IMG/VR virus record: IMGVR_UViG_3300045988_165705
Reading direction: 5' to 3' (one strand)
DNA length: 64,000 nt
DNA from: a virus
A program made the position numbers and the translations under genes. A model generated the notes under the pieces. It was given only the letters and a program-made list of their open reading frames with translations. It made no database searches and was not told where the DNA came from. This document shows, one piece after another, positions 13,177 to 56,940 of this stretch; the stretch's first letter is position 1, and the number at the start of each line of letters is the position of its first letter.

Positions 13177-13251
13177 TGGTTGCGGGCACCGGAGTTGAAC
13201 CGATTCCTCAAGGTTTATGAGACCTGCGACTTAACCGCTTGTCCTGCCCGC
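13177..13251 (-). tRNA. tRNA-Met or Ile2 (CAT)
   Basis: The reverse complement folds as a cloverleaf with acceptor GCGGGCA/TGCCCGC, anticodon loop CTCATAA, T-loop TTCAACT and an encoded CCA. One mismatch in the anticodon stem. Confidence 0.75.
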
Positions 13252-13255
13252 AATA

Positions 13256-22977: not shown

Positions 22978-23006
22978 GGACAGACCACCCGCAACCGCAA
23001 GGAACA

Positions 23007-23189
23007 CCCGCCGCCCCGCCGCACACAGGGTACACCCCTTGCGGTTAAGGGTGCAGGGCAAGACCCCGCCGCCCCGCCGCACACAGGGTACACCCCTTGC
23101 GGTTAAGGGTGCAGGGCAAGACCCCGCCGCCCCGCCGCACACAGGGTACACCCCTTGCGGTTAAGGGTGCAGGGCAAGACCCCGCCGCC
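23007..23189 (+). repeat. tandem direct repeat, 58-bp unit, 3 full copies plus 9 nt
   Basis: Period 58 (cacacaggg at 23022, 23080 and 23138). The copies are identical by eye. Each unit contains the hairpin CACCCCTT-gcggt-TAAGGGTG. Confidence 0.9.
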
Positions 23190-23199
23190 GAAAGGCGGT

Positions 23200-23996
23200 C
23201 ACGCTAAGACAGCCCTATGGCTAATCCTGAGTATTCAGGCAACCTTGCCACTGTCCGAGTGGGTGGAAACCCACTAAAACCTCTAATCGGTTTAGCACCG
23301 GTTTTGAGGGGAACACCGGTGCAATCTGAGTTTGAGGCGGATTGCGATATTGATTATACAAGTTCCCCTGCCTAATGCAGCCTTTGGCGGTCACAAGCCC
23401 GCATGAGAAATGCAGAGTGGGTATTGTCAGAGGAATATAAGCGGAGATGTCCGCCACTTCCATGACAGGCAATACAAGTTGCGGTACTGTTCCCAGACAA
23501 CTATAAAAATCAGGGCACTTGTAATCCGCAAGGATAAATAATGGATGGTAGTCCGACTGAGGGACTATAAAGCGCAGTTTACCCGATAAATTCGGGCGTC
23601 GCCGGTGCATGAGAGTTAGGCTCATGGTACGAGATAGTGAAAATCCCCGGAGGTTTGCGCCTATGAACCTAAGTGCGGCTTGCATAACTGATGGCTATAC
23701 AAGAACGACTTTTGAAAGTAAGTAGTATCGTCCGAGTTTTCTACCCAAGGGTATTGTGCTCCGAGGAGCCGAAAGCAAGGGCATATAGATATGAAAGCCG
23801 AATTTGGTCAAGTATTGCGAATTGAACAGAACAGTCCCCGATAGAAATGAGTATCGGAAATGGTGCGTGTTCCGTTCGATACTGCAACGGCTGTGGGGCA
23901 AAATATACCCCATGCGCCGAAATGCAGAGCCGGAACCATTTCAAATATCGGGTTTATCATTGATAGAGCCGCCGAGGGTTTTTCTTCGGCGGTTTC
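23200..23996 (+). ncRNA. large ORF-free, hairpin-dense RNA candidate (GOLLD/ROOL-class?)
   Basis: About 0.8 kb with no credible ORF on either strand. At least 10 local hairpins, e.g. gtgggt/acccac, gcaccggt/accggtgc, gcgga/tccgc, tagtcc/ggacta, cccga/tcggg, catgag/ctcatg, ccgata/tatcgg. Ends in a terminator-like hairpin at 23969-23996. Phage context with tRNA islands. Confidence 0.35.
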
Positions 23997-25743: not shown

Positions 25744-26002
25744 GGCTGGCACGGTACGATTCCGTGGAGTGGTTTCCCACTTAACGCTTAGTCCTTGTAT
25801 TAGTGAAGGTAAGTGAGGGGGCACCCAAAATTCTGAAAGCTTTACAAGGCGTTGGGGACTACGAAAGTGTCCAAGTGTTATGGAAATGCTGCCATGACCA
25901 CGGGATATGATTAAGAAAGTGCATCCTTGGAAGTTGGAGTATTACGGCTATAGCCGTCGGGTGAAACTTCCTCCCGTTATCAACAATGGAAGGGAGCTTA
26001 TC

Positions 26003-28352: not shown

Positions 28353-28442
28353 GGGAAAGTGGCGAAACGGTTAGACGCGGGGCGAGTAGAGCCCTGGGAG
28401 GTTGCGCACCCCTTGTTGGTTCAAATCCAACCTTTCCCACCA
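28353..28442 (+). tRNA. tRNA-Tyr-like type II tRNA with an atypical anticodon loop (GAGTAGA)
   Basis: Acceptor GGGAAAG/CTTTCCC plus ACCA. The T arm GTTGG-TTCAAAT-CCAAC is identical to that of tRNA-Tyr at 13256..13341. Anticodon stem GGGGC/GCCCT, but the loop has G32 A33 GTA G37. Confidence 0.5.
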
Positions 28443-33768: not shown

Positions 33769-33853
33769 GGGGAATTGGCGGAACAGGCAGACGCTGCGGA
33801 CTTAAAATCCGCTGGTGCATACCATATCGGTTCGACTCCGATATTCCCCACCA
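33769..33853 (+). tRNA. tRNA-Leu (TAA)
   Basis: Acceptor GGGGAAT/ATTCCCC, anticodon arm GCGGA-CTTAAAA-TCCGC, variable arm, T arm ATCGG-TTCGACT-CCGAT, CCA. Confidence 0.85.
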
Positions 33854-33880
33854 TATAACAAAATGAATAGAGGTGTTCCT

Positions 33881-35341
33881 ATGTTCAAAACAAGCATTTC
33901 GTCAACGCCGTTTACCACGGAAGCTGCCAATAGCTACTTTACCAACATCACCGGCGGTGCTTTCGGCAACGACTGCTCTTTCCTTGCGACGCTTCGTGCC
34001 TTAGTTGCACCTCGAATCAAAGAGGGAGAGTCCGTCAATCTGCTGTTCGGCTCTTCTGATTATACGGCAGACACGATTCGTAGTGTTCCGGCGGACAGAG
34101 CCGTTTCGGCTATCTGCAACAACTATGATATGAGCGCAACCGGTCAGGTTATTATTCATAGTTTGCGGGCAGACTCGGACAGCAATCTTGCCAACATGAA
34201 AATCATCGCCGACAAGTTTGCCTCTGTGTATGCGGGGTATCATCGCCTCGAAAAGTTCGCAGAGTTCTACCGCAAGTCTTTTGCTGTGGATTGCTACATC
34301 AACCCTGAGCTTAAGAGCGTTATTATCTTTGCGGACAATCTCGACATCCGTAAAATGCATTACTTGCAGGTTTCCATCCTTGCATTCCTGCCGTGGTATC
34401 TGAACCAGCAGGAGGGCATCACCGAGGATGAGCTTGCGTTGGTCAAGTCCCTTCGTGAAAAGAACTCGGAAGAGTATGAACACTGTCTTGCCAAGCTTGC
34501 GGAACGGTATGATTTCCGAACTGCAAGAATCCGTCAATTGCTGAAGGGGTTTGAGACCCGCTACGAGCAGATTGAGTGTGACCGGGTCAGACAGATGATT
34601 CAGAACATCGACCGAGAAATTACCCGTCTGAATGACAACATCGGTGAGCAGTTCACAAAGCGTAACGAACAGTGCATTCGCTTGCTGGGTCTTGAGCAGA
34701 AAGTTGCCGATGGCGGTGAGGACTCCGAAATCATGGAGTACTTCCTGTGCAATACCAAGCTGGTTCTGGAGCGAGTGACCAACACCGATATGTATTTCAC
34801 AGTCAAGGATTGCCTGGAGTATTTCGACCGGGATATGGCGGAGCAAATCATCAATCGTGCTACCAGTTTTGTGTACCGTCCTGATGGTGGTTCCGGCCAC
34901 ACAGGCGCAGCCGCTGAAAAGATGAAGAAGCTGATGACCGAAATCTTTGTCAGCGAGGAGCCGCGTCTGAAAATCCGTGTCTGTGCATCGTATCGCTTTG
35001 ACCTCAATGGTAGTGTTTCTCCGCAGGGACATCGAAGCTTTGGCGCGGAGTACGCTGATTACCTTCCCAATCCCCATATCAACGACTACAACTGCATGGG
35101 CAACTATACCACCACTATCAACAGGCTCCTCAAAAATCACGATTACATCGGTGCTTTGGAGCAGTGTATTGCTTCTTGTAAGAGCCTTAACTGGGGCGAC
35201 TCTGCGGTCATGACTTCGTTTATGCGGTCTATGTGGGGCAACGGCAGCAACAATCGCTGCATTGAACTGCCTGATGGTCGTGTTGTAAAACCCAACGAAG
35301 CCATCACTTGGTTGGAGCAGCAAGCACAGACAAATGAGTAA
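33881..35341 (+). CDS. large cassette protein, possible E2-like C-terminal domain
   Basis: Start set at MFKTSISS (AGAGGTG RBS) because the ORF-track start overlaps the tRNA. 486 aa. The C-terminal 'LPNPHINDYNCMGNY' is reminiscent of the UBC HPN...C loop, which is weak evidence. Confidence 0.6.
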   Translation: MFKTSISSTPFTTEAANSYFTNITGGAFGNDCSFLATLRALVAPRIKEGESVNLLFGSSDYTADTIRSVPADRAVSAICNNYDMSATGQVIIHSLRADSDSNLANMKIIADKFASVYAGYHRLEKFAEFYRKSFAVDCYINPELKSVIIFADNLDIRKMHYLQVSILAFLPWYLNQQEGITEDELALVKSLREKNSEEYEHCLAKLAERYDFRTARIRQLLKGFETRYEQIECDRVRQMIQNIDREITRLNDNIGEQFTKRNEQCIRLLGLEQKVADGGEDSEIMEYFLCNTKLVLERVTNTDMYFTVKDCLEYFDRDMAEQIINRATSFVYRPDGGSGHTGAAAEKMKKLMTEIFVSEEPRLKIRVCASYRFDLNGSVSPQGHRSFGAEYADYLPNPHINDYNCMGNYTTTINRLLKNHDYIGALEQCIASCKSLNWGDSAVMTSFMRSMWGNGSNNRCIELPDGRVVKPNEAITWLEQQAQTNE

Positions 35342-35357
35342 GCGGAGGAGGCGCAAA

Positions 35358-36317
35358 ATGAGTAAACCCATTAAGATGACCGAGCAATACATGGCTGAGT
35401 GCCGTGCAGATTTTGAAAAGGCTTTGCAGCTCACAAAGCTGGCAGATGGGAAACTGTCTTTCACAAAGGTGTTCACCTGTGGTGACAGAAAAGCAACCGT
35501 TTTCTTCACCGCTGGGGCATGGGCAAAGATGGCGCTCCTTATCAAGGAATTCGATAAGGAGGTCGCTTGGCATGGTGTTGCGCATCGTGCAGCCGACGAA
35601 GCCGTAGATGAGTACATCATCGAAGACATCGTGGTTTATCCGCAGGAGGTCTCCGGAACCACGGTTGAGATGGACACTGAGAAGTACGCTGAGTGGTTGA
35701 TGCAGAACGCAGACGATGAGCGCTTCAACAACATTCATATGCAGGGACATTCCCATGTCAATATGCCGACCAGCCCGTCCTCTGTAGACCTTAATCATCA
35801 GGAGGAAATCCTCAATATGCTGGGGGACGATGATTTCTACATCTTCATGATTTGGAACAAGTCGTTTGTCAGTACAAATAAAATCTATGACCTCAAGAAG
35901 AATGTCCTGTTTGAAGATAAGGACATCACCGTCAAGCTTGAGGGTGAACATGAGGGGCTGGCTGAGTTCCTCAAGACCGCCAAAGATATGGTCAAGCAGA
36001 AAAGCTATACCTATGGGAGCTATGGCGGATATAGCGGGTACAGTGGCAACCGCCCACCTTATTCTGTCACCCCCTATAATCCTCTTCCGGACAGCAAAAA
36101 GGATGAGAAAGAAGATAAGGGCGACAAGAAGTCCGATAAGAAGTCTGACGACAAGAAATCGGACAAGAAGTCCGAAAAGGCCGAGAAGCCGCGCACAAGA
36201 ATCGGCGCAGGCTGGCAGGGAAAGAATGCCTGTCAGCAGTCCATGTGGGACGAAGATGACGATGATTCTGTGTACCCCTACGGCGGCTACAGCGACCAGT
36301 ATCTTGGAGGTGAATGA
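35358..36317 (+). CDS. JAB/MPN (JAMM) metalloprotease-domain protein
   Basis: 'VYPQEVSG' (Glu) and 'HMQGHSHVNMPTSPSSVD' (HxHx7SxxD). Start set at MSKPIK, after GGAGGAGG. Lys/Asp/Ser-rich tail ending YLGGE. Confidence 0.8.
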   Translation: MSKPIKMTEQYMAECRADFEKALQLTKLADGKLSFTKVFTCGDRKATVFFTAGAWAKMALLIKEFDKEVAWHGVAHRAADEAVDEYIIEDIVVYPQEVSGTTVEMDTEKYAEWLMQNADDERFNNIHMQGHSHVNMPTSPSSVDLNHQEEILNMLGDDDFYIFMIWNKSFVSTNKIYDLKKNVLFEDKDITVKLEGEHEGLAEFLKTAKDMVKQKSYTYGSYGGYSGYSGNRPPYSVTPYNPLPDSKKDEKEDKGDKKSDKKSDDKKSDKKSEKAEKPRTRIGAGWQGKNACQQSMWDEDDDDSVYPYGGYSDQYLGGE

Positions 36318-36319
36318 TA

Positions 36320-36997
36320 ATGGCAATGGATTTGTCCAAAAGCTACGAGTATTTCCAGCCTGAAAAGGTAGAGGCTCGCATCAATATCGTCGGATGCGGT
36401 TCTGTCGGCGCAACGCTGGCAGAGAACCTTGTCCGTCTTGGCATTACCAATCTCGCTCTGTGGGATATGGATGTCGTGAATCCGCATAATCTGGCAAATC
36501 AGATTTTCCGTCAGCAGGATATTGGCCGCCCCAAGGTGGAAGCATTGGCAGATATCCTGTTTGAAATCAATCCTGAAATCAAGGATGACCTCAAGCTTTA
36601 TGCCAAGGGGTGGAGCGGGCAGCAGCTCTCCGGATATGTCTTCCTTTGCGTAGACAATATCGAACTGCGCCGCCAGATTGTTGAAAAGCACTTCGACAAT
36701 CCCTATGTCAAAGCGATGCTGGATTTCCGCACTCTGCTGGAATCTGCGCAGCATTATGCTGCTGACTGGTCTGACTACAAGATGAAGAAAGACCTGCTGA
36801 ACTCCATGAGCTTCAGTCATGAAGAAGCAGCCGAGGAAACGCCAGTCTCCGCTTGCGGCATTACGCTGGGTGTCGCCCCCACCGTCAGAGCTATCTGCGC
36901 ACTTGGCGTTGCCAACTTTGTCAACTTCATTCGTGGAAAAGGATTGAAAAAGCTTATCATTCTGGATGCGTTCAACTTTATGTTGGACGCTTTTTAA
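36320..36997 (+). CDS. ThiF/MoeB/E1-like adenylyltransferase (minimal)
   Basis: 'INIVGCGSVGATLAENLVRLG' (GxGxxG Rossmann) and 'WDMDVVNPHNLANQIF'. Overlaps the JAB gene stop. Confidence 0.8.
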   Translation: MAMDLSKSYEYFQPEKVEARINIVGCGSVGATLAENLVRLGITNLALWDMDVVNPHNLANQIFRQQDIGRPKVEALADILFEINPEIKDDLKLYAKGWSGQQLSGYVFLCVDNIELRRQIVEKHFDNPYVKAMLDFRTLLESAQHYAADWSDYKMKKDLLNSMSFSHEEAAEETPVSACGITLGVAPTVRAICALGVANFVNFIRGKGLKKLIILDAFNFMLDAF

Positions 36998-37031
36998 TCA
37001 GCAATGAAAAACGAAAGGAGGGCGGTGCATT

Positions 37032-37841
37032 ATGGATACTACCGTCGAACGCCTTAAGGTCGGGACACCGGTCATCATTGGTTCTTACGGTGTCAACAAC
37101 GATGAGCCGCACCCTGTTGTTTGGCTGAAAGGTAGTCCAAACTGCGATTTTATCACCGAGTGCGCCGTGGATTATCTTTGCTTTGATGCACCGGAAAGAA
37201 CTGGAGACGGCAGGTGCAATCTTGGCAATCCCGACTATCGTCTGTCCAATATTCATACATACCTAAACAGCGACAGAGACGATTGGTTTCGCAAAACTCA
37301 TGAAGCAGATGCCCCTCCGAATAATGTTTTCAGCAACCGAGCACAAAGCTATCGCAACCATTATGGGTTTCTATATTTCTTTGAAGATTATGAACTCGAT
37401 AGCTTGCAGATGCAGCAGTATGTGGTTGATGGTGAGACGCTCAGTTCCATCATTCGACTTCCTACTATCACCGATATCCTTGATGACCAGTTGAAGCTGA
37501 AGCTGTTTTCCAAGAAGGGTATTCGTCCCAAAGCAACAGAAGACTGTGCTGATAAAAAAGGCCGGTTTGGTAATTTCAGTTGGGAGTCTTACATGAACTT
37601 CTGGTTGGCAGGCAAGCAGGATGAATTCAGAGGCTATGCTTTGACTCTTAGTAGGTCTGGGTATTGTGAGAGGAAATATCCCCGTGACTGTGCGGGGCTT
37701 AGGCCGATGTGCCGGTTGAAACCGGAAACAGTGGTAGAGGTTGATGAAAACGGCGTAGCCCACATCAAACCATACGCATTGAAAAACGAAACCTGCACAG
37801 ATGCAGAACTGTTCGAGCTATTAGGTGTGGCGCAGCCTTAA
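37032..37841 (+). CDS. DUF6273-like protein (divergent paralog)
   Basis: 'PVVWLKGS', 'SNIHTYLNS', 'NFWLAG' and 'CAGLRPMCRL' follow the same layout as 32160..32819. AAAGGAGGG RBS. Confidence 0.5.
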   Translation: MDTTVERLKVGTPVIIGSYGVNNDEPHPVVWLKGSPNCDFITECAVDYLCFDAPERTGDGRCNLGNPDYRLSNIHTYLNSDRDDWFRKTHEADAPPNNVFSNRAQSYRNHYGFLYFFEDYELDSLQMQQYVVDGETLSSIIRLPTITDILDDQLKLKLFSKKGIRPKATEDCADKKGRFGNFSWESYMNFWLAGKQDEFRGYALTLSRSGYCERKYPRDCAGLRPMCRLKPETVVEVDENGVAHIKPYALKNETCTDAELFELLGVAQP

Positions 37842-37853
37842 AATGCGCCATTG

Positions 37854-38177
37854 AACTGTAACGAATTACCCTTTTCGGGGGCTTCACGCCAAAGGCTGAA
37901 GTAACAAATTGTCGGGGAGGAAAACACCGCCTGCCCAGAAGGGTAACCAGCGACTCCTCCGGAGTCATCAGGTGCTTTGGACATCCACCAGGAAACCAAC
38001 AGCCGGAATAGCACAGCAGACCTGGCTTGTCAAGTCCTATCCTTCACAAAACCCACCCAAATCACGACAATTATCCTCAACTCAACTAAAAAGATACAGG
38101 CAAATGCAGCTCACTCAGCTCGCTGCAGATGAGCTTCTTTTGATTCAAACGCAGCAACACTCATGTAGGTTACAGTT
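37854..38177 (+). ncRNA. structured RNA module A (retron msr-msd-like layout)
   Basis: Closing helix aactgtaac/gttacagtt. G follows the 5' strand. Hairpin ccc-ttttc-ggg. Hairpin cttca-CGCCAAAGGC-tgaag, then TAACAAATTGTCGGGGA. TGTAGGTT precedes the 3' strand. No ORF. Confidence 0.55.
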
Positions 38178-38204
38178 ACGACTATGAAAAGGAGGCATAG
38201 GGCG

Positions 38205-39341
38205 ATGGTATATATCACGGTCATGCAATCCCCGATTTATCACCAAATGACACTGGAAGAGTTCCTCTTTCAAAACTTCCAAGCGCCAACCATATTAAAC
38301 ACAAATGTTTCTAATACACGAACCTATGCATATGAAACGGTAAGTGAGCATTTCACAAGCCGCATTGATACGAACGCTCTTATCTGCAAACTGGTGCGCT
38401 TTAATGAGCAAACGGAGGCGCTTCGCGCACAGGAACGCAGTACTTTGTATGAAACATTCCACATCCCCAAAAAGTCTGGTGGTTTGCGTCGTATTGATGC
38501 TCCTAAACCGGAGCTGATGAACGCATTGCGGAATCTCAAGACTATTTTTGAAGAAGATTTCCATGCATTGTATCACACTTCTGCATTCGCCTATGTAAAA
38601 AACAGATGTACGGTTGATGCGGTCAAGCGCCATCAGAAAAACAACAGCAAATGGTTCGGCAAGCTGGATTTGCACGATTTCTTTGGTAGCACCACGCTGG
38701 ATTATGTTATCAAAATGTTTTCTATGGTGTTCCCATTCAGCGAAATCGTAAAGTTTCCCAACGGCGAGGCAGAGTTGCGGAAGGCCTTGGATTTGGCTTT
38801 TCTCAATGGAGGTCTGCCGCAGGGAACTCCACTTTCTCCGCTGATTACCAATGTGATGATGATTCCTGTTGACTATAAGCTTGCCAATGCATTCCGTGAT
38901 TTTGACAAGCAGCGGTTCATTTACACCAGATATGCCGATGACTTCATCATTTCGTCTAAGGTTGATTTCGATGTGCATCGTGTAGAAAAACTCGTGGTGG
39001 ATACGCTGCATGAATTTGGAGCGCCGTTCACCATCAACGAAAGCAAAACGAGATACGGCTCTTCCGCAGGTCGTAACTGGAATCTTGGTGTTATGCTCAA
39101 CAAGGACAATGAAATTACTGTCGGCCATAAGAAGAAGCGCCAGTTCCAGTCCATGCTTTACAACTACATTACCGATAAACGCAAGGGCATCTCGTGGCCG
39201 AGAGAAGATGTGCAAACTATGCAGGGCTTACATAGCTACTATCGCATGGTAGAGCCGGAGACTATCGATGCCATCGTGAAGCACACCAACGAAAAAATGG
39301 AGACAGATGTCCTGCGGCTTATCAAAGACGATTTAAGATAA
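38205..39341 (+). CDS. reverse transcriptase (stand-alone; retron/DRT/Abi-like, not assigned)
   Basis: 'FHIPKKSGGLRRIDAP', 'LPQGTPLSPLITN', 'YTRYADDFIIS', 'NLGVMLN'. No maturase or endonuclease extension. Alternative start at ATG 38184. Confidence 0.85.
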   Translation: MVYITVMQSPIYHQMTLEEFLFQNFQAPTILNTNVSNTRTYAYETVSEHFTSRIDTNALICKLVRFNEQTEALRAQERSTLYETFHIPKKSGGLRRIDAPKPELMNALRNLKTIFEEDFHALYHTSAFAYVKNRCTVDAVKRHQKNNSKWFGKLDLHDFFGSTTLDYVIKMFSMVFPFSEIVKFPNGEAELRKALDLAFLNGGLPQGTPLSPLITNVMMIPVDYKLANAFRDFDKQRFIYTRYADDFIISSKVDFDVHRVEKLVVDTLHEFGAPFTINESKTRYGSSAGRNWNLGVMLNKDNEITVGHKKKRQFQSMLYNYITDKRKGISWPREDVQTMQGLHSYYRMVEPETIDAIVKHTNEKMETDVLRLIKDDLR

Positions 39342-39348
39342 TCCCTTT

Positions 39349-39370
39349 GGCGGTTTGGGGTTAAACCGCC
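39349..39370 (+). terminator. hairpin after the RT stop
   Basis: ggcggttt-ggggtt-aaaccgcc. Weak T-tract (attt). Confidence 0.35.
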
Positions 39371-39372
39371 AT

Positions 39373-39646
39373 TTCCTGTAATGGATAATTGCGAAAGCAA
39401 TGCTTATCGCCAAAGGCATAAGTAACAACTTGCTGGGAAGGAACACCCCGCCTCTTCCTGAAGACCGGCTGCCGACGCGGCTGCGACCCAATCGGGCTCG
39501 GCATCAAGCATGGAAAATAGAGTCAACGGTCATTGCGGCACAATGAATCCCACACCAGCAGAGAATTAAAATAGGAACTAACCGCACCTGCAATGCGCTC
39601 CAGGCGCCTCGCATCCGGCACGCTTATCCTATGTAGATTACAGGAA
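39373..39646 (+). ncRNA. structured RNA module B
   Basis: Closing helix ttcctgtaat/attacaggaa. GG follows the 5' strand. Hairpin ttgc-gaaa-gcaa. Hairpin cttat-CGCCAAAGGC-ataag, then TAACAACTTGCTGGGAA. TGTAGATT precedes the 3' strand. Confidence 0.55.
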
Positions 39647-39654
39647 CACCAAAA

Positions 39655-39959
39655 TCATTTGCAATGAATAACATCCCGAAAGGAATGTGCTTTGCGCCAA
39701 AGGCCAAAGTAACAATTTGTTGGGAAAGCAAAGGCCGCCCGCCACGAAGGCGGAACGAAGGTTCAGGACTCATCGCCGAAGAGATACACCTCGGTAGAAA
39801 CCGAGCAGCAAAAGCACGAGATATAGCAAGGTCGATAAACCACTGAGCCACAGGCGCTTCCCCACATTACCAAATTCCCGTGGAAACCACCGACCCGAGC
39901 AGCCGGGCCGTCGTCCGGTACCGGTCTCCAGGTACACGCTCCGTGTAGATTGCAAATGA
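39655..39959 (+). ncRNA. structured RNA module C
   Basis: Closing helix tcatttgcaat/attgcaaatga. G follows the 5' strand. Hairpin tcc-cgaaa-gga. Hairpin ctttg-CGCCAAAGGC-caaag, then TAACAATTTGTTGGGAA. TGTAGATT precedes the 3' strand. Confidence 0.55.
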
Positions 39960-39977
39960 AGAAAGGAATCAGATTCC

Positions 39978-40679
39978 ATGATATATGTAACAGGCGATAC
40001 TCACGCCAATATCGACATTGAAAAGCTCAATACAACAAAGTTCCCGCAGCAGAAAAACCTGACAAAGGATGACTACCTGATAATATGTGGTGACTTTGGA
40101 TTGTGCTGGGACGGCTCACGCAGAGAAATGTGGTGGCAGGACTGGCTCGCAGCCAAAAATTTCACCACCCTTTGGATTGATGGAAACCACGAAAACTTTG
40201 ATATGCTCTACGAGTTCCCGTTAGAGGATAAGTTCGGTGGCAAAGTCAGGCAAATTGCACCTGACATTTATCATCTGGATAGAGGTCAGGTTCTTGCCAT
40301 CAATGGTAAGAAAATCTTCTGTATGGGCGGCGCCCGCTCGGTGGACAAAGCGTATCGCACGGAGCATATTTCATGGTGGCAGCAGGAGATGCCGTCAAAT
40401 GAGGAGATGGAGCGTGCAGTTTGTGCTCTGGAGCAGAACAACTGGACAGTTGATTATGTTGTAACGCACTGCGCTCCCCGCAGCATCCAGACAATGCTGG
40501 CAAGTTGGTATGAAAACGACCCGATGGTCAGTTTTTTGGAACGCATTCGTCAAGACCTTCGTTTCAAGCGGTGGTATTTCGGCCACTACCATGTGGACAA
40601 ACAACTCAATGACCAGTTTGTTGCCCTGTACAATCGGGTAATCCCGATTTCAGATATGCAGATGTGGCGGAATAGGTAG
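39978..40679 (+). CDS. metallophosphoesterase
   Basis: 'VTGDTHAN', 'ICGDFG', 'IDGNHENF', 'THCAP', 'GHYHVD'. Confidence 0.8.
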   Translation: MIYVTGDTHANIDIEKLNTTKFPQQKNLTKDDYLIICGDFGLCWDGSRREMWWQDWLAAKNFTTLWIDGNHENFDMLYEFPLEDKFGGKVRQIAPDIYHLDRGQVLAINGKKIFCMGGARSVDKAYRTEHISWWQQEMPSNEEMERAVCALEQNNWTVDYVVTHCAPRSIQTMLASWYENDPMVSFLERIRQDLRFKRWYFGHYHVDKQLNDQFVALYNRVIPISDMQMWRNR

Positions 40680-41061
40680 ACGCTACAAATTACAGACAGG
40701 ATGCCGACCTCTCAAATGGCGGAGACCGATGCGCTGTAAGGTCATGCGGGGTGCAAATCCCCGCCATCTGCGCTACCGGCATGGCATTGCCGTGGGAAGG
40801 ACATAATGTTTCTCCAGAATTATGCCGGTGTGCCGACACATAGAAAGCGGCTGGGCAATGCGGAGCCTGTAGAGACAAAATCCGTAGAATATTGAAGCGG
40901 CAGGCGTTCCGTCATGCGTTTACCGTGGAGTTCCAAAGGGTTGTGCGTATTCCTCAAGGCGGATAGGTGAGAGCCAAAAGAAAACGCACTGCAGATACAG
41001 ACCTGCGTTACCAAAGGTGTCGCGCTGGCAGACCGCAAGTTCGCAATAGTCTGCCACTTAT

Positions 41062-41139
41062 ACGGGCGAATGTTCCAAGGCTGGCGAGGCGGTCTCCAAA
41101 ACCGCTTGTGGTGGGTTCGATTCCCAACCGTCCATGCCA
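41062..41139 (+). tRNA. tRNA-Trp (CCA) candidate with a degenerate D arm
   Basis: Anticodon arm GCGGT-CTCCAAA-ACCGC, T loop TTCGATT, acceptor ACGGGCG/CGTCCAT (6 of 7 pairs, A1-U72), discriminator G, CCA. The D stem is poorly paired. Confidence 0.45.
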
Positions 41140-41328
41140 GAGGCTGGGTAGCGCCCAGATGATGTGAGAGATTATCGGCTTACCTCACAGAGAATGACAA
41201 TGCCCGCTGAAAACTGCGCGAGGAGATGCGTCTCCCTTGTGATTTAGCCCAAGAGTGGCCGGTTGGTATGCTTGCGGGGCGCCAGCTGCACATGAGCGTG
41301 TGACAATCTAAGCGGGAAGCCGACCAAT

Positions 41329-41404
41329 GCTGGAATAGCTCAATTGGTAGAGCAACGCTCTCGTACAGCGTAGGTTCTCGGTTCGACTCCGAGTTCCAGC
41401 TCCA
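41329..41404 (+). tRNA. tRNA-Thr (CGT)
   Basis: Acceptor GCTGGAA/TTCCAGC, anticodon arm ACGCT-CTCGTAC-AGCGT, T arm CTCGG-TTCGACT-CCGAG, CCA. Confidence 0.85.
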
Positions 41405-41407
41405 TTT

Positions 41408-41483
41408 GCTGGTGTAGCTCAGTTGGTAGAGCATCGGTTTTGTACTCCGAGGGTCGCGGGTTCGAGCCCTGTCACCAGCTCCA
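41408..41483 (+). tRNA. tRNA-Thr (TGT)
   Basis: Acceptor GCTGGTG/CACCAGC, loop TTTGTAC, T arm GCGGG-TTCGAGC-CCTGT, CCA. One T-T mismatch at the loop end of the anticodon stem. Confidence 0.8.
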
Positions 41484-41506
41484 CAAAACATATGGGAGGA
41501 TTGGTA

Positions 41507-41998
41507 ATGTATCTGTATCATGGCACCCCAGTTTCATTTACTGCACCGTCCTTATCTTTTTGCAAGCCGTACCGTGATTTCGGGTGCGGCTTTTACCTTA
41601 CCCCAAACTATTTTGACGCATTACCGATGGCAATTAAGCACTCAACCGCAGGTTTCATCCAGACATATACCGTAAAGGATTTGGATGGTCTATCGGTGTT
41701 AGAGTTTGCGGGCTACTCCGAAGCATGGCTGCGGTTTGCTGTAGCATCTCGGCTGGGCTATACTTCCACTGAGTATGATTTGGTTATTGGTAATATGGCT
41801 GGCGGCGGAGCAAACCTCAAAAGCAAGTTTTCTAAATTTAGACGGGCAAGTATGTCCATAGCAGAGGTCATGTCAATAATGAAGCACGACCTCACCAGCA
41901 CTAATCTTGGATTGCAGTATGCGTTTTTGACAGAAAAGGCACTATCCAAATTAACATTGATTGATACCGAAATGGTAGAAAGGGAGGATGCAGTATGA
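41507..41998 (+). CDS. DUF3990-like protein
   Basis: Start set at MYLYHGT (GGGAGG RBS) because the ORF-track start overlaps the tRNAs. 'LYHGT...YRDFGCGFYLT' matches the family pattern I recall. Confidence 0.6.
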   Translation: MYLYHGTPVSFTAPSLSFCKPYRDFGCGFYLTPNYFDALPMAIKHSTAGFIQTYTVKDLDGLSVLEFAGYSEAWLRFAVASRLGYTSTEYDLVIGNMAGGGANLKSKFSKFRRASMSIAEVMSIMKHDLTSTNLGLQYAFLTEKALSKLTLIDTEMVEREDAV

Positions 41999-42534
41999 CA
42001 AGAAATGATTTCCTTAACGATGTAACCGAATGGTGGGAGTTGCTTGATTTCTGCTCCGACGAGGGCTGCAATATCTGCGAAGACATTATCGACTCTGACC
42101 AGCTTGACGAGTATGTCGAGGAAGATATCCGCGAAACCAATTACTCATGGAGAGACATTCGAGACTCGCTTTCCGAAATCCAAACCGGATATGGTTACTA
42201 CCGTATGAACGGCAGCTTCGACTATGACGGTATGGACGAAAATGACTTTGACAGTTATAAGGAGGATGTCCTGGAGTGGGGCGACAACAACGGTGTTTGG
42301 GAAGATGAGCCTGATGACGAGGACGATTTCGATACCGACACCATGTTTAATGAAGAAGAGTCTGAACCGGATGAGCCTCCTGTGGAGGAAGAAGACTTTT
42401 CCATCGGTGAACTGATGGGTTTCTGCGGCGTTGTCCTTTTGGATATCCGCCGAGAGGAAGCTGCTGAACGGGCAAGAGAAGACGAGGCGTTGAATCAACT
42501 TATTAACGCCAATCGACCGAGGATTCTTCACTAA
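41995..42534 (+). CDS. highly acidic hypothetical protein
   Basis: 179 aa. 'EDEPDDEDDFDTDTMFNEEESEPDEPPVEEEDF'. ATGA overlap with the upstream gene. Confidence 0.7.
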   Translation: MTRNDFLNDVTEWWELLDFCSDEGCNICEDIIDSDQLDEYVEEDIRETNYSWRDIRDSLSEIQTGYGYYRMNGSFDYDGMDENDFDSYKEDVLEWGDNNGVWEDEPDDEDDFDTDTMFNEEESEPDEPPVEEEDFSIGELMGFCGVVLLDIRREEAAERAREDEALNQLINANRPRILH

Positions 42535-42545
42535 CTTTGTTCTTA

Positions 42546-42566
42546 AGCGAAAAAATCTTTCGCTTT
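42546..42566 (+). terminator. hairpin after the acidic-protein gene
   Basis: agcgaaa-aaatc-tttcgct followed by ttc. Confidence 0.4.
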
Positions 42567-42572
42567 CGATAT

Positions 42573-42805
42573 GACCGCTTTGTAGATTTTCCGCACATAC
42601 ATACCCCCTTCTCCGTGCGGTATCTTCTCGCTCAAAGCAGAAGAAACACTTTGCGTTCTTCATTTTTAACTTCGGATTTAGCCAGTATTAAAAAGATTAT
42701 CCAGCGGATAATCATTTTAATACAGCCAAAATCTCTCGTTAAAAATGTCACTTGATGCACAGGGTCGCGCCACAGTACAAACGCGCTCCCCTGCGGAAAG
42801 CGGTC
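42573..42805 (+). ncRNA. structured RNA module P (same family, subfamily 2)
   Basis: Closing helix gaccgcttt/aaagcggtc. 5' strand followed by GTAGATTT. Hairpin ccgcac...gtgcgg. Hairpin cttct-CGCTCAAAGC-agaag. Long hairpin gattatcc-agc-ggataatc. Confidence 0.5.
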
Positions 42806-42811
42806 GGATAC

Positions 42812-42840
42812 AGGTAAAGGGGCGCAAGCCCCTTTTACCT
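42812..42840 (+). terminator. strong hairpin between module P and rtcB
   Basis: ggtaaaggggc-gcaa-gccccttttacc (one bulge), about 35 nt before the rtcB RBS. Confidence 0.55.
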
Positions 42841-42878
42841 GAACAGGACTATATACCAAGCCAAAGGAGGGCGATAAA

Positions 42879-44084
42879 ATGCTTGAGCTTCAGGGAAAAT
42901 ACGCTTCGGCAAAAGTGTTTACCGATGTGGTCGATAACGAATCCATTTCTCAGGTCATCAATCTCTTGAACCAGCCCTATGTCGAAGGTAGCCAGGTTCG
43001 CATGATGCCGGACATTCATGCCGGTGCTGGCTGCACCATTGGAACCACCATGACTATCAAGGATAAGATTTGCCCAAACCTTGTTGGCGTTGACATTGGA
43101 TGCGGCATGGAAACCATCCGCCTGAAGGAGACCTACATCGAGCCGCAAAAGTTGGACAAGGTTATCCGTGAGGGCATTCCGTCTGGTTTTTCAATTCGTT
43201 CCGTCCCGCATCGTTACGCAAAGGAAATCGATTTATCGCAGCTGTGCTGCGCGAAGAAGGTCAATACCGACCGTGCCTATCATAGCATTGGTACTTTGGG
43301 CGGCGGCAATCATTTTATTGAGGCGAACAAGGACGATGATGGGAACATCTATATCGTTGTCCACTCCGGCAGCCGTCATCTGGGTTTAGAAATCGCCAAC
43401 TTCTATCAGGAGGCTGCTTTCAGGGCACTGACCTCTTATAGCCACGAAGAGATTGAGGCGGCTATTGAACAGCTGAAAGCGGATGGCCGCCAGAAAGAGA
43501 TTCAAGCGGTGCTGAAGTCCATGAAATCCAAGCGTTCACCCGTTCCCAAACCGCTTGCATATGTGAATGGTGAGCTCTTTGAGCAGTATCTTCATGATAT
43601 GAAAATTGCACAGCGTTTTGCTGAGCTGAACCGGCAGGCGATGATGGATACCATTGTCAAAGGAATGGGATTCCATGTGATTGAGCAATTTACAACGATT
43701 CACAACTACATTGATGTGGATAACATGATTTTGCGTAAGGGTTCTGTGTCTGCACAAACCGGTGAGCGTCTGTTGATTCCCATCAATATGCGTGATGGCA
43801 GCCTGCTTTGCACCGGCAAGGGCAATCCGGATTGGAACTTCTCCGCTCCTCATGGTGCCGGTCGGCTGATGAGCCGCAGCGCTGCAAAAGAAGCTTTCAC
43901 TGTATCCGAATTCAAAAAGCAGATGGCGGGTATCTACACGACATCTGTTGGGCACAGCACGCTGGATGAATGCCCGATGGCCTATAAGGGCATGGATGAT
44001 ATTGTCGGTAATATCGAGCCAGCTGTAACCGTCGATGCCATTATCAAGCCCATTTATAATTTCAAGGCGGGTGATGAAGATTGA
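42879..44084 (+). CDS. rtcB: RtcB RNA 3'-phosphate/5'-OH ligase
   Basis: 'MPDIHAGAGC', 'GGGNHFIE', 'HSGSRHLG', 'PHGAGR'. 401 aa. Confidence 0.9.
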   Translation: MLELQGKYASAKVFTDVVDNESISQVINLLNQPYVEGSQVRMMPDIHAGAGCTIGTTMTIKDKICPNLVGVDIGCGMETIRLKETYIEPQKLDKVIREGIPSGFSIRSVPHRYAKEIDLSQLCCAKKVNTDRAYHSIGTLGGGNHFIEANKDDDGNIYIVVHSGSRHLGLEIANFYQEAAFRALTSYSHEEIEAAIEQLKADGRQKEIQAVLKSMKSKRSPVPKPLAYVNGELFEQYLHDMKIAQRFAELNRQAMMDTIVKGMGFHVIEQFTTIHNYIDVDNMILRKGSVSAQTGERLLIPINMRDGSLLCTGKGNPDWNFSAPHGAGRLMSRSAAKEAFTVSEFKKQMAGIYTTSVGHSTLDECPMAYKGMDDIVGNIEPAVTVDAIIKPIYNFKAGDED

Positions 44085-45373
44085 TTGCTGCAACGCCGCT
44101 GTCAGATTCTATCGTAAAATTACGCTGTTTGCAGGAAGCGAGCGGCTCCATAAGAAAGACCCAGCTATTACGGGAGTTCCAAGATGATGCGAACTTCCGT
44201 ATTTTTTTATATTACGCGCTCAACCCGATGCTCACCTATAAGATTTCGGAGCAGACGCTTCGCTCCACTGTCCGGTATGATTCAACCATTACACTGACAA
44301 TGACAGACATCTTTTCTGTCTGCGAGCTGCTGTCCAAGAGAAAGGCATTGGATGCCGGTACGGTGTATCAGGTTTGCGCATTCGTGCAGAGCGCCCCGCT
44401 GGATGAAGCTGATGTTTATATCAAGCTTCTTTCAAAGACACTCCGGCTGGGCGTAACGGCAAAGACCGTGAACAAGGTTATCCCCAATCTGATTCCGGAG
44501 TGGGAGGTTCAGCAGGCATATCCCATTGATAAGTATCCGCTGAAAGAGAACACAGAATTTTGGCTGACACAAAAGCTAAACGGCGTTCGGGCGACCTATT
44601 ACAAAGGCAGACTGTACGCAAGAAGCGGAGTCCCCTATGAAGGACTTGACCATATTCTGGATGCTCTCTGTTTTGATGAAGAGGATAGCTATGTATTCGA
44701 CGGCGAGCTGACTCTTCGTGAGAAGGGCAGCCTCTCAGATAATGAGGCGTTCCGCAAAGCCACCGGTATTATCAACTCGGATGATGGTGATAAAACGGTG
44801 ATTTGCTACACGATTTTTGATGTTCTGACGGTCGAAGAGTTCCACCGTGGGCAAAGCGACGGCAATTACGGCTACCGCCGTGCTTTCTTAGACCAGCTTC
44901 ACCGCTTCATTCCGCAAGATGGCCGGGTCAGCATCCTGCCGGTTTTGTATCATGGAAAAGACCAGAGCAAAATCAGTGAACTGCTGGAGCAAATGGTTCG
45001 TGAGGATAAAGAGGGGCTGATGGTCAACCTTGATGTTCCCTATCAGTGCAGACGACACAACGGAATCCTGAAGGTCAAACGCTTTTACACGATGGACTTA
45101 CGCATTCTCCGCTGCGAAGAAGGCGGCGGAAGATTGGCAGGGACTTTGGGTGCGTTTGTACTCGACTATAAGGGGAATGAAGTCAAGGTCGGCTCCGGGT
45201 TCACCGATGAGCAGCGGGCAACATTCTGGCAAGGAAAAGATGACCTGCCGGGTTTGCTCTGCGAAGTAAAGTACAAGGAAATATCCAGTGATAAAAACAC
45301 CGGTGCTGAGAGTCTTCAGTTCCCGGTGTTTATTTCTATCCGAACCGATAAAACCGAAGTCAGCTTCGGATAA
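44081..45373 (+). CDS. ATP-dependent DNA (or nucleic-acid) ligase
   Basis: Nucleotidyltransferase motifs 'TQKLNGVR' (motif I Lys), 'FDGEL', 'KEGLMV', 'ILKVK'. Overlaps the rtcB stop. Confidence 0.75.
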   Translation: MIAATPLSDSIVKLRCLQEASGSIRKTQLLREFQDDANFRIFLYYALNPMLTYKISEQTLRSTVRYDSTITLTMTDIFSVCELLSKRKALDAGTVYQVCAFVQSAPLDEADVYIKLLSKTLRLGVTAKTVNKVIPNLIPEWEVQQAYPIDKYPLKENTEFWLTQKLNGVRATYYKGRLYARSGVPYEGLDHILDALCFDEEDSYVFDGELTLREKGSLSDNEAFRKATGIINSDDGDKTVICYTIFDVLTVEEFHRGQSDGNYGYRRAFLDQLHRFIPQDGRVSILPVLYHGKDQSKISELLEQMVREDKEGLMVNLDVPYQCRRHNGILKVKRFYTMDLRILRCEEGGGRLAGTLGAFVLDYKGNEVKVGSGFTDEQRATFWQGKDDLPGLLCEVKYKEISSDKNTGAESLQFPVFISIRTDKTEVSFG

Positions 45374-56355: not shown

Positions 56356-56582
56356 ACCGCTTTGTAGATTTGCTGTTATACATATTCACTTTCAGCAGCT
56401 TTTCGCCAAAGGCAAAAGTAAGAGTTCGCCACTTATGTTCGCCAATCCGACAAGCCCGCTTCGCGGGCAGTCAACTTTTTCTTGCTCGCATTGCAAGCAA
56501 TGCTCGCAAGTGTCGGATTGGCGAACAATGTTGATGCATATCGGTTTGAGGCTTTAGAAAAACGACCGATACGGAAAGCGGT
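56356..56582 (+). ncRNA. structured RNA module Q (same family, subfamily 2)
   Basis: Closing helix accgcttt/aaagcggt. 5' strand followed by GTAGATTT. Hairpin tgctg...cagca. Hairpin ctttt-CGCCAAAGGC-aaaag. 16-bp long helix gttcgccaatccgaca/tgtcggattggcgaac. Confidence 0.5.
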
Positions 56583-56604: not shown

Positions 56605-56940
56605 ATGCCTGATTACAAAAAATTCTTTGAGTATTGGCACGACCTGTACGGAACGGAACTGAAAATCGCAGGATGGCATCTCAACGGGGAGCTGGAAGAC
56701 TTCGATAACTTCTTTGACTCCGCCGTTGCGAGTATGGACGGCGTTACCACCACGAGAACCTTTCAGGGTAAAACATACACGGAACTGTGGGAAGAGTTCG
56801 GCGATGTGCCGATGAACCCAGAAACCGAATGTATCGAAGTTGCCTGGTGTGGGTTCCCAAAAGGCACACACCGTGAGGATATCTGGCATTGGTTCGAGGA
56901 AACCTTTGGCGTGGCCGTTCATGACCTTATGTATTCATGA
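56605..56940 (+). CDS. hypothetical protein
   Basis: 111-aa ORF with a GGAGG RBS immediately after module Q. Confidence 0.6.
   Translation: MPDYKKFFEYWHDLYGTELKIAGWHLNGELEDFDNFFDSAVASMDGVTTTRTFQGKTYTELWEEFGDVPMNPETECIEVAWCGFPKGTHREDIWHWFEETFGVAVHDLMYS

Follow-up and report, generated by a model that had tools for sequence, protein, structure and literature searches.

Can a single reverse transcriptase (RT) of retron type serve a whole set of RNAs? The question is raised by a locus in the IMG/VR phage record IMGVR_UViG_3300045988_165705, of which a stretch of 64,000 nucleotides (nt), here called the window, was analysed. Retrons are known as bacterial defence systems that consist of one RT, one non-coding RNA (ncRNA) and one effector. 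In the window, a stand-alone RT gene is flanked by three paralogous structured-RNA modules of ~270-325 nt each (A upstream, B and C downstream), and two further RNAs lie remote from it. Here we show that this multi-RNA arrangement is conserved throughout a phage lineage, in 71 loci, and that the five RNAs fall into two classes with a homologous 5′ domain made up of a strand (a1) of the terminal helix, an invariant G and two hairpins, P1 and P2, the latter with a bulged C. The three RT-flanking copies make up class I, each with a fast-evolving, A+C-rich interior of 150-250 nt; class II comprises the two remote copies, which carry a conserved long stem. We consider it somewhat probable, from the combined analysis, that the locus is a phage-lineage-specific retron-like system in which one stand-alone RT of the retron clade serves several cognate ncRNAs, five of them in the window. 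An earlier note, made by reading the letters of this DNA, knew of no description of such a configuration, and our searches agree with it: neither RNA class matches any of the 4227 families of Rfam 15 at gathering or permissive thresholds, and a full-text search of the literature found no paper on a phage retron-type RT with multiple ncRNAs.

The RT-flanking modules and their reverse transcriptase

The positions and sequences first noted for the RT and modules A, B and C were all verified (Table 1). The pattern GTAACAANTTGYYGGGRA is present in the window solely at these three modules, and folding gives each of them a terminal helix, the small hairpin P1 and the hairpin P2. Module A ends 27 nt before the RT start codon, and the spacing of about 25 nt between upstream module and RT is like that of retron msr-msd-ret operons; module C ends 18 nt before the start codon of a metallophosphoesterase gene. 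The hairpin between the RT stop codon and module B is terminator-like, but with a weak T tail, and a promoter scan of the locus performed no better on the real sequence than on shuffles.

To place these modules in a wider family, 71 IMG/VR phage loci were retrieved with the RT protein, with RT identities of 41-99%. The covariance-model search of related phages that had been proposed in the earlier note was run with a model (R1) built from the 5′ parts of modules A, B and C. It returned 158 matches in the 71 loci, every one of them on the RT strand and in a recurrent layout, with one match ~350 nt upstream of the RT start and 1-4 downstream. A second covariance model, built from the R1 matches, confirmed this layout in 40 diverse loci with 2-5 modules each. 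Class I modules are 234-458 nt long (median 296).

In 139 modules, a1 finds a partner stretch (a2) 220-350 nt downstream to form a helix of 8-14 base pairs (bp), with a median of 10 bp compared with 5.5 bp in shuffles; helices of at least 9 bp occur in 124 of 138 modules and in 21 of 690 shuffles. The claim that the closing helix differs in sequence yet stays complementary in each copy thus extends from the window to the family, with dozens of unrelated a1/a2 sequences (for example, GATTCACGAC/GTCGTGAATC, TGTTACCGTAAT/ATTACGGTAACA and TAAAAAATTGTGAT/ATCACGATTTTTTA), and the G directly after the 5′ strand, also reported from the window, is present in every complete class I module. The a1/a2 sequence is kept among positional orthologues and differs among the paralogues of one genome, as would be expected were each RNA required to pair with itself within a longer transcript. 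The two 5′ hairpins behave likewise: standard pairs fill 98.8% of the alignment cells of P1 and P2, compared with 34-42% in slid controls, and double changes are found at 13 of 14 pairs, in an alignment that was fitted to the model structure and so somewhat favours it. Homologous loci therefore do show compensatory changes, with the closing helix, P1 and P2 all covarying. Two details of the original description needed revision. The supposed invariant loop CGCCAAAGGC is in fact a bulged C followed by a 3-bp GCC/GGC stem with an AAA loop, and this small stem itself covaries in distant loci (GCC/GGC, GCU/AGC, ACU/AGU and GGU/ACC). Of the motif TGTAGRTT that was said to precede the 3′ strand, TGTAG does precede a2, whereas RTT is part of a2.

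The RT was described as free of any maturase or endonuclease extension, and Pfam indeed gives RVT_1 alone. Family members align from the methionine encoded by the ATG at 38205, which has a ribosome-binding site upstream. The 25 best PADLOC models for the protein are all retron RTs (top RT_II-A, 1.3e-47), with scores so alike across types I-A, II-A, III-A and XIII that no defined retron type fits it. Among NCBIfam models, retron_St85_RT ranks first at 177.9 bits, ahead of group II (79) and Drt2 (40), with Drt3a far lower, and the best sequence matches in the PDB are the RTs of retrons Ec83, Ec78 and St85. On the question of where the RT belongs, which the earlier note had posed, retron models thus score best, and neither a group II intron nor a diversity-generating retroelement (DGR) is supported. 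YADD and every polymerase motif are conserved in 21 aligned family members, down to 41% identity. Because these motifs are conserved and retron models match best, the protein is, as judged by its motifs, a divergent but catalytically intact member of the retron clade outside the curated families.

The RT relatives that we found are all on phage contigs. Matches in genome collections fall on contigs of 5-360 kb from metagenome-assembled genomes, and their inconsistent taxa (Prevotella, Clostridia, Bacteroides and an archaeon) suggest mis-binned phage DNA. One exact RT sequence is recorded on at least 1000 contigs; the carrier is a very common lineage of gut phages. A blastn search against GenBank phages gave no DNA match.

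A second RNA class remote from the RT

The two remote RNAs, R42 and R56, had been counted as further copies of the same kind; they turn out to form a structurally distinct class. An improved covariance model gave weaker matches at 56370-56454 and 42610-42653, and the RNAs around these matches extend over 42572-42806 and 56356-56582. Both begin with (G)ACCGCUUU-G-UAGAUUU followed by a hairpin (P1′) with ACAUA in its loop. Their P2 has exactly the shape of that of class I, CUUUUC-GCC-AAA-GGC-AAAAG, and their 3′ end consists of CGG and then AAAGCGGU, which pairs with the 5′ end. R42 therefore runs from a1 through G, UAGAUUU, P1′, the class I-shaped P2 and long stem-loops to CGG and a2, and R56 from a1 through G, P1′, P2 (CTTTTCGCCAAAGGCAAAAG) and a branched long stem (56437-56452 with 56511-56526) to CGG and a2. 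Both RNAs have long, stable stem-loops 3′ of P2 and fold with z-scores of -9.0 and -5.2. R42 is followed, upstream of the RtcB gene, by a hairpin that resembles a terminator and has a T run (~42813-42846), and R56 ends 23 nt before an ATG at 56606.

Like class I, class II recurs. With a covariance model of its 5′ domain (R3), another 15 strong copies came to light; they are spread over 12 other loci and lie 2-5 kb downstream of the RT. An exact 14-mer scan for the class gave mostly chance matches, with 20 real copies after filtering. In 17 copies the closing helix measures 6-19 bp and takes many sequences (among them CTCACAT/ATGTGAG, GACCCGCCGT/ACGGCGGGTC, TATTGGACAAT/ATTGTCCAATA and AAAACCACAT/ATGTGGTTTT), covarying across at least 14 loci, with a G after a1 in every copy and (A/C)(G/A)G before a2. 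Four pairs in the long stem of the R56 type are fully compensatory when the window is compared with a group of 79% RT identity (AATCCGACA/TGTCGGATT compared with AAACCAGAA/TTCTGGTTT). Among close phages, the class II RNAs are 97.8-100% identical, unlike the class I interiors. The models of the two classes match each other's RNAs at 20-33 bits, and the 5′ domains are therefore homologous. Of the two classes, class II looks more like canonical msr-msd RNA than the RT-adjacent modules do.

Table 1 Positions of the RT, the five RNAs and neighbouring genes in the window (aa, amino acids)
Feature	Position	Strand	Elements and remarks
Three-gene block	33815-36997	+	508-aa unknown protein; 327-aa protein with weak JAB match; 227-aa ThiF/E1-like protein
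Class I ncRNA module A	37854-38177	+	a1 AACTGTAAC 37854-37862; G 37863; P1 37869-37880; P2 37881-37902; GTAACAAATTGTCGGGGA 37901-37918; variable interior ~37935-38163; TGTAG 38164-38168; a2 GTTACAGTT 38169-38177
Stand-alone RT of the retron clade (by model scores), 378 aa	38205-39341	+	GGLRRIDAP, LPQGTPLSP, YTRYADDFIIS; YADD intact
10-bp hairpin TGGCGGTTTGGGGTTAAACCGCCA	39348-39371	+	Directly 3′ of the RT stop codon; adjoins a1 of module B
Class I ncRNA module B	39373-39646	+	a1 TTCCTGTAAT 39373-39382; G 39383; P1 39388-39401; P2 39402-39423; central hairpin 39530-39546; TGTAG 39632-39636; a2 ATTACAGGAA 39637-39646
Class I ncRNA module C	39655-39959	+	a1 TCATTTGCAAT 39655-39665; G 39666; P1 39671-39688; P2 39689-39710; central mini-hairpin 39843-39853; TGTAG 39944-39948; a2 ATTGCAAATGA 39949-39959
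Calcineurin-like metallophosphoesterase	39978-40679	+	Follows the modules in many related loci too
Class II ncRNA R42	42572-42806	+	a1 TGACCGCTTT 42572-42581; G 42582; a2 42797-42806
RtcB	42879-44084		
Ligase	44081-45373		
Class II ncRNA R56	56356-56582	+	a1 ACCGCTTT 56356-56363; G 56364; a2 56575-56582

A retron-like reading and its alternatives

The msr-msd layout of retrons, which the modules had been said to match, is recovered in part. The terminal a1/a2 helix, the adjacent invariant G, the two covarying 5′ hairpins and an RT just downstream of module A all conform to it, whereas the RT lacks the VTG signature and the would-be msd of class I is not a single long hairpin. What a retron needs for priming is all present here and under selection: the RNA has 5′ hairpins and a terminal helix that ends in a G, and the RT encoded just downstream of module A is of the retron clade, with its catalytic motifs intact. 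By analogy with retrons, the RT would bind the conserved P2/GUAACAA element, the conserved hairpin thus serving as the recognition element and the interior as the template. The a1/a2 helix would set the invariant G beside the 3′ end of the template, and the 2′-OH of this G would prime cDNA synthesis on the nucleotide before a2. In class I the predicted start is the G of (U)GUAG, and in class II the last G of CGG (CAG in some copies). One enzyme would in this way give rise to several different branched products of RNA and single-stranded DNA (ssDNA) in the infected cell.

Several observations weigh against this proposal. VTG in RT motif 7 is a characteristic signature of retrons (PMC8632793); the HVTG of Ec83 aligns with NWNLG in the RT studied here, a replacement kept in nearly all of the 21 aligned family members, and the Ec83 motif DNAKIHQ reads DAVKRHQ, a variant conserved across the same set. 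The RT score of 177.9 bits lies below the curated retron_St85_RT cut-off of 235. No retron effector was recognised, as seven neighbouring proteins match no PADLOC retron effector model. A distance of 4-18 kb separates the class II RNAs from the RT, to which they are linked only by the shared 5′ domain and by co-occurrence in the same phages. Over 56 representatives, the class I interiors fold into 2-9 small hairpins each and are no stabler than their dinucleotide shuffles (mean z -0.6); they therefore lack the long msd hairpin, which msDNA production is said to require. Finally, cDNA from the modules is a prediction.

The main competing explanation, which we judge unlikely, is that the modules are structured RNAs that are bound by the RT or otherwise functional without being reverse-transcribed, acting as scaffolds, sponges or cis-acting leaders for the gene downstream. 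P2 would then be a protein-binding operator and the RT possibly the RNA-binding regulator. Such a role would suit the position of the modules, which often end 15-30 nt before a ribosome-binding site and start codon, as module A does at the RT, C at the metallophosphoesterase and R56 at the open reading frame at 56606, and as several class II RNAs do elsewhere. It would also suit the two altered hallmark motifs of the RT, and the interiors themselves have conserved islands, a conserved central hairpin and some compensatory helix changes. The hairpin, of the form yUG-NNNCA-CAr, sits about 105-125 nt from the 3′ end of B- and C-type modules and is also seen at about 5311-5337 of L010; phages of the 79% RT identity group have an invariant version of 12 bp. 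It stays constant where the sequence around it is hypervariable, and might be a signal for the RT to stop or a site at which a protein binds. A few interior helices carry compensatory changes between alleles. However, module B precedes module C and no gene, the terminator-like hairpin separates R42 from RtcB, and phage genomes are so compact that any intergenic RNA adjoins a start codon. YADD and the polymerase motifs are under strong purifying selection, which argues that polymerase activity is being kept, and the terminal helix with its invariant G is the exact geometry of retron priming. A long-range helix (P3) between AAnUUGyyGGGRA and a distal CCC...CAA tract looked good in the three window modules but found no support over the 56 representatives, in which the best duplex does not exceed shuffles (mean z -0.56) and shifts from module to module.

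The variation of the class I interiors bears on a further possibility. The window was set against seven phages (L003-L007, L052 and L053) that have 99%-identical RTs. The variable stretch lies between GTAACAAnTTGyyGGG and TGTAG, with the 5′ domain, a2 and the RT almost invariant: variable columns amount to 36%, 19% and 57% in interiors A, B and C, 1-7% in the 5′ domains, about 10% at RT third codon positions (37/379) and about 23-26% at those of the flanking genes (62/270 and 61/234). Between pairs of these phages, interiors diverge by 0-46%. Whole modules of distant loci, submitted to MAFFT and RNAalifold, have interiors that are not alignable. Throughout, the interiors keep an A+C-rich composition despite their divergence (A 0.30, C 0.29, G 0.21 and T 0.19 on the RNA strand, compared with 0.29, 0.22, 0.25 and 0.25 for the loci as a whole).

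A pattern of this kind might be expected if class I modules were self-diversifying templates, whose error-prone cDNA recombines into the phage genome as a mutagenic retroelement that, unlike DGRs, has no target; we regard this as improbable. In its favour, the variation is sharply limited to the stretch between the 5′ domain and TGTAG, interior C differs by 21-46% where RT four-fold sites differ by 1-6% (in the comparison of the window with L004, by 23% where both flanking genes differ by at most 4% at four-fold sites), the ratio of transitions to transversions is 1.0-1.6 in interiors compared with 5-9 in the flanking genes, and the class II RNAs of the same phages are near-identical. Against it, the phages are mosaic. 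Across 34200-43300 of the window the mosaicism is strong: among these phages the ThiF, JAB-like and phosphoesterase genes switch from one allele class to another, with differences at four-fold sites of either 0% or 20-35%, a sign of frequent recombination. Interiors A and B reach only about 1-3 times the divergence of neighbouring four-fold sites, which relaxed constraint and cassette exchange through the conserved module ends can explain. Substitutions hit all four bases, with no base-specific signature in the interiors. What can safely be said is that the rate at which class I interiors evolve equals or exceeds the local neutral rate; the cause may be relaxed constraint with cassette exchange or an active RT-linked process. 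An elaboration of the same idea, to which we likewise give little credence, is that class I interiors are copied into several ssDNAs of ~100-250 nt per cell, that error-prone cDNA recombining back keeps the templates diversifying, and that the phage deploys the resulting natural ssDNA library, in which one enzyme serves many templates, as decoys or sponges for host immunity that senses or degrades DNA.

The remaining explanations were tested and found unsupported. Gene synthesis of the DRT2 kind, in which a closed template is copied repeatedly by rolling circle into protein-coding concatemeric cDNA, would draw on the terminal helix that joins the template ends and on sense-strand stop-free stretches slightly longer than in shuffles (0.80 compared with 0.71 of interior length). 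It is very improbable: the RT groups with retrons and scores 40 bits with the Drt2 model against a cut-off of 390, interior substitutions have no three-base periodicity (25/34/26, 11/12/12 and 41/47/34), and the small excess of open frame is as expected from T-poor composition and was counted over interrelated sequences. Equally remote is the idea that the modules are mobile elements with terminal inverted repeats or non-autonomous retroelements mobilised by the RT, or parts of a DGR or group II intron, as several copies per genome, short terminal inverted repeats and the adjacent RT gene might suggest; the copies are syntenic across the 71 loci and not scattered, the inverted repeats covary and so behave as a base-paired helix rather than a protein-binding site, no Rfam intron family matches at the gathering threshold or at E<=10, the 378-aa RT has no maturase or endonuclease domain, interior copies elsewhere in the 64-kb window are limited to chance matches of <=12 nt, so that neither a variable-repeat partner nor a recombination donor is found there, and substitutions are not adenine-specific. 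The predicted cDNA has no G-quadruplex potential.

Genomic setting and relation to known systems

The cluster lies in a region of tRNA and RNA-repair genes, with 12 tRNAs called by ARAGORN and with RtcB and ligase genes. Given this position and the lack of a recognisable effector, the retron-like system would most plausibly act in counter-defence or in modulating host nucleic-acid surveillance. Nearly all related loci, including those with RT identity as low as 41%, keep the order of the 508-aa protein, the JAB-like protein, the ThiF/E1-like protein and the ncRNA-RT-ncRNAs array, which may simply reflect the conserved genome order of one phage lineage. The ThiF protein is similar to the E1 portion of CBASS Cap2. 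The three-gene block as a whole may be a phage module for ubiquitin-like conjugation or deconjugation. Dbr1, the lariat-debranching enzyme, is a member of the same superfamily as the calcineurin-like metallophosphoesterase, and a role for the latter in processing 2′-5′ branches is conceivable; the protein has no PDB match by sequence and matches generic phage phosphoesterase families only, which lends no support to its identification as a Dbr1-like debranching enzyme.

Other features of the region were seen in passing. In one locus (L069, 4001-4553), only the last 82 RT codons are kept (100% identical), followed by module B, with RtcB and ligase genes ~0.3 kb beyond it; this appears to be a deletion variant without module C, the phosphoesterase, the tRNAs and R42. 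A DUF3990 protein (41423-41998, +), beside tRNA genes, matches the PADLOC candidate defence families PDC-M13B, M13A and M10A (1e-24 to 2e-19). Rfam gathering scores are passed by RAGATH-16, RAGATH-4, RAGATH-36 and a drum RNA, at 23582-23652, 23829-23963, 25747-25875 and 40887-40992 (+); the drum RNA lies just downstream of the metallophosphoesterase, in a region that some near-identical phages lack or have replaced. Near the RAGATH RNAs, at ~23000-23200 (-), stand three tandem copies of a GC-rich unit of ~60 nt (GGCGGGGTCTTGCCCTGCACCCTTAACCGCAAGGGGTGTACCCTGTGTGCGGCGGGGC). ARAGORN alone called a 90-nt tRNA-Tyr and a tRNA-Trp (28353-28442 and 41062-41139, +), and Rfam alone a tRNA at 13180-13252 (-) that is absent from the ARAGORN output.

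Set beside canonical retrons (Ec86, Ec83, Ec78 and St85/Sen2), the system shares the RT clade, as placed by model scores, a stand-alone RT with an ncRNA directly upstream on the same strand, complementary ncRNA ends, a conserved G by the 5′ strand, short 5′ stem-loops and, in class II, a long stem at the msd position. It differs in having 2-5 RT-adjacent and 1-2 remote RNAs per RT in place of one, in being carried on phage contigs of 50-150 kb with no recognisable effector, in an RT without the VTG signature and in class I RNAs that have a long, A+C-rich, fast-evolving interior instead of a long msd hairpin. Non-canonical retron RNAs do exist, as shown by the hybrid RNA of the type VI retron Retron-Vpa2 (bioRxiv 10.1101/2025.10.22.683967). 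Type VI retrons resemble the present system in their non-canonical RNA, in which template and downstream coding sequence share one structured transcript, so that cDNA synthesis can control translation; they are bacterial defence systems that encode a helix-turn-helix protein and a small toxin within the RNA (bioRxiv 10.1101/2025.10.22.683967), whereas here the interiors have no coding signal, there are several RNAs and the genome is that of a phage. DRT2, in which a UG2 RT and an ncRNA produce the neo gene by rolling-circle synthesis (PMC12039810), likewise joins one RT to a neighbouring structured ncRNA with a helix-closed template; the RT clade differs, a repeat open reading frame is unsupported here, and the G beside the helix points to 2′-OH priming. 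DGRs also combine a phage-borne RT with an unusually variable stretch, but there a conserved template accompanies a target gene that varies at adenines, whereas in the present locus it is the putative template that varies, at all four bases, with no target copy within the window. Multitrons are engineered retron arrays in which one retron RT serves several ncRNAs with different a1/a2, each folding alone; they are synthetic, and the system described here would be their natural counterpart.

Collectively, these observations point to a retron-type RT that has no recognisable effector and would serve a whole set of cognate RNAs, kept by a common lineage of gut phages, and they raise the question of what a phage gains from making several ssDNAs or RT-bound RNAs during infection. 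Rfam 15 has neither RNA family, and both would be candidates for inclusion. If class I is copied, the locus would be a natural multiplexed retron whose templates tolerate almost any sequence of ~200 nt between handles of ~90 nt (5′) and ~15 nt (3′), each copy with its own orthogonal a1/a2 pair; such properties, if borne out, are those wanted for retron-based genome editing. The system is abundant, well defined and directly testable by simple expression experiments for several ssDNAs, and is potentially useful as a natural multiplexed retron.

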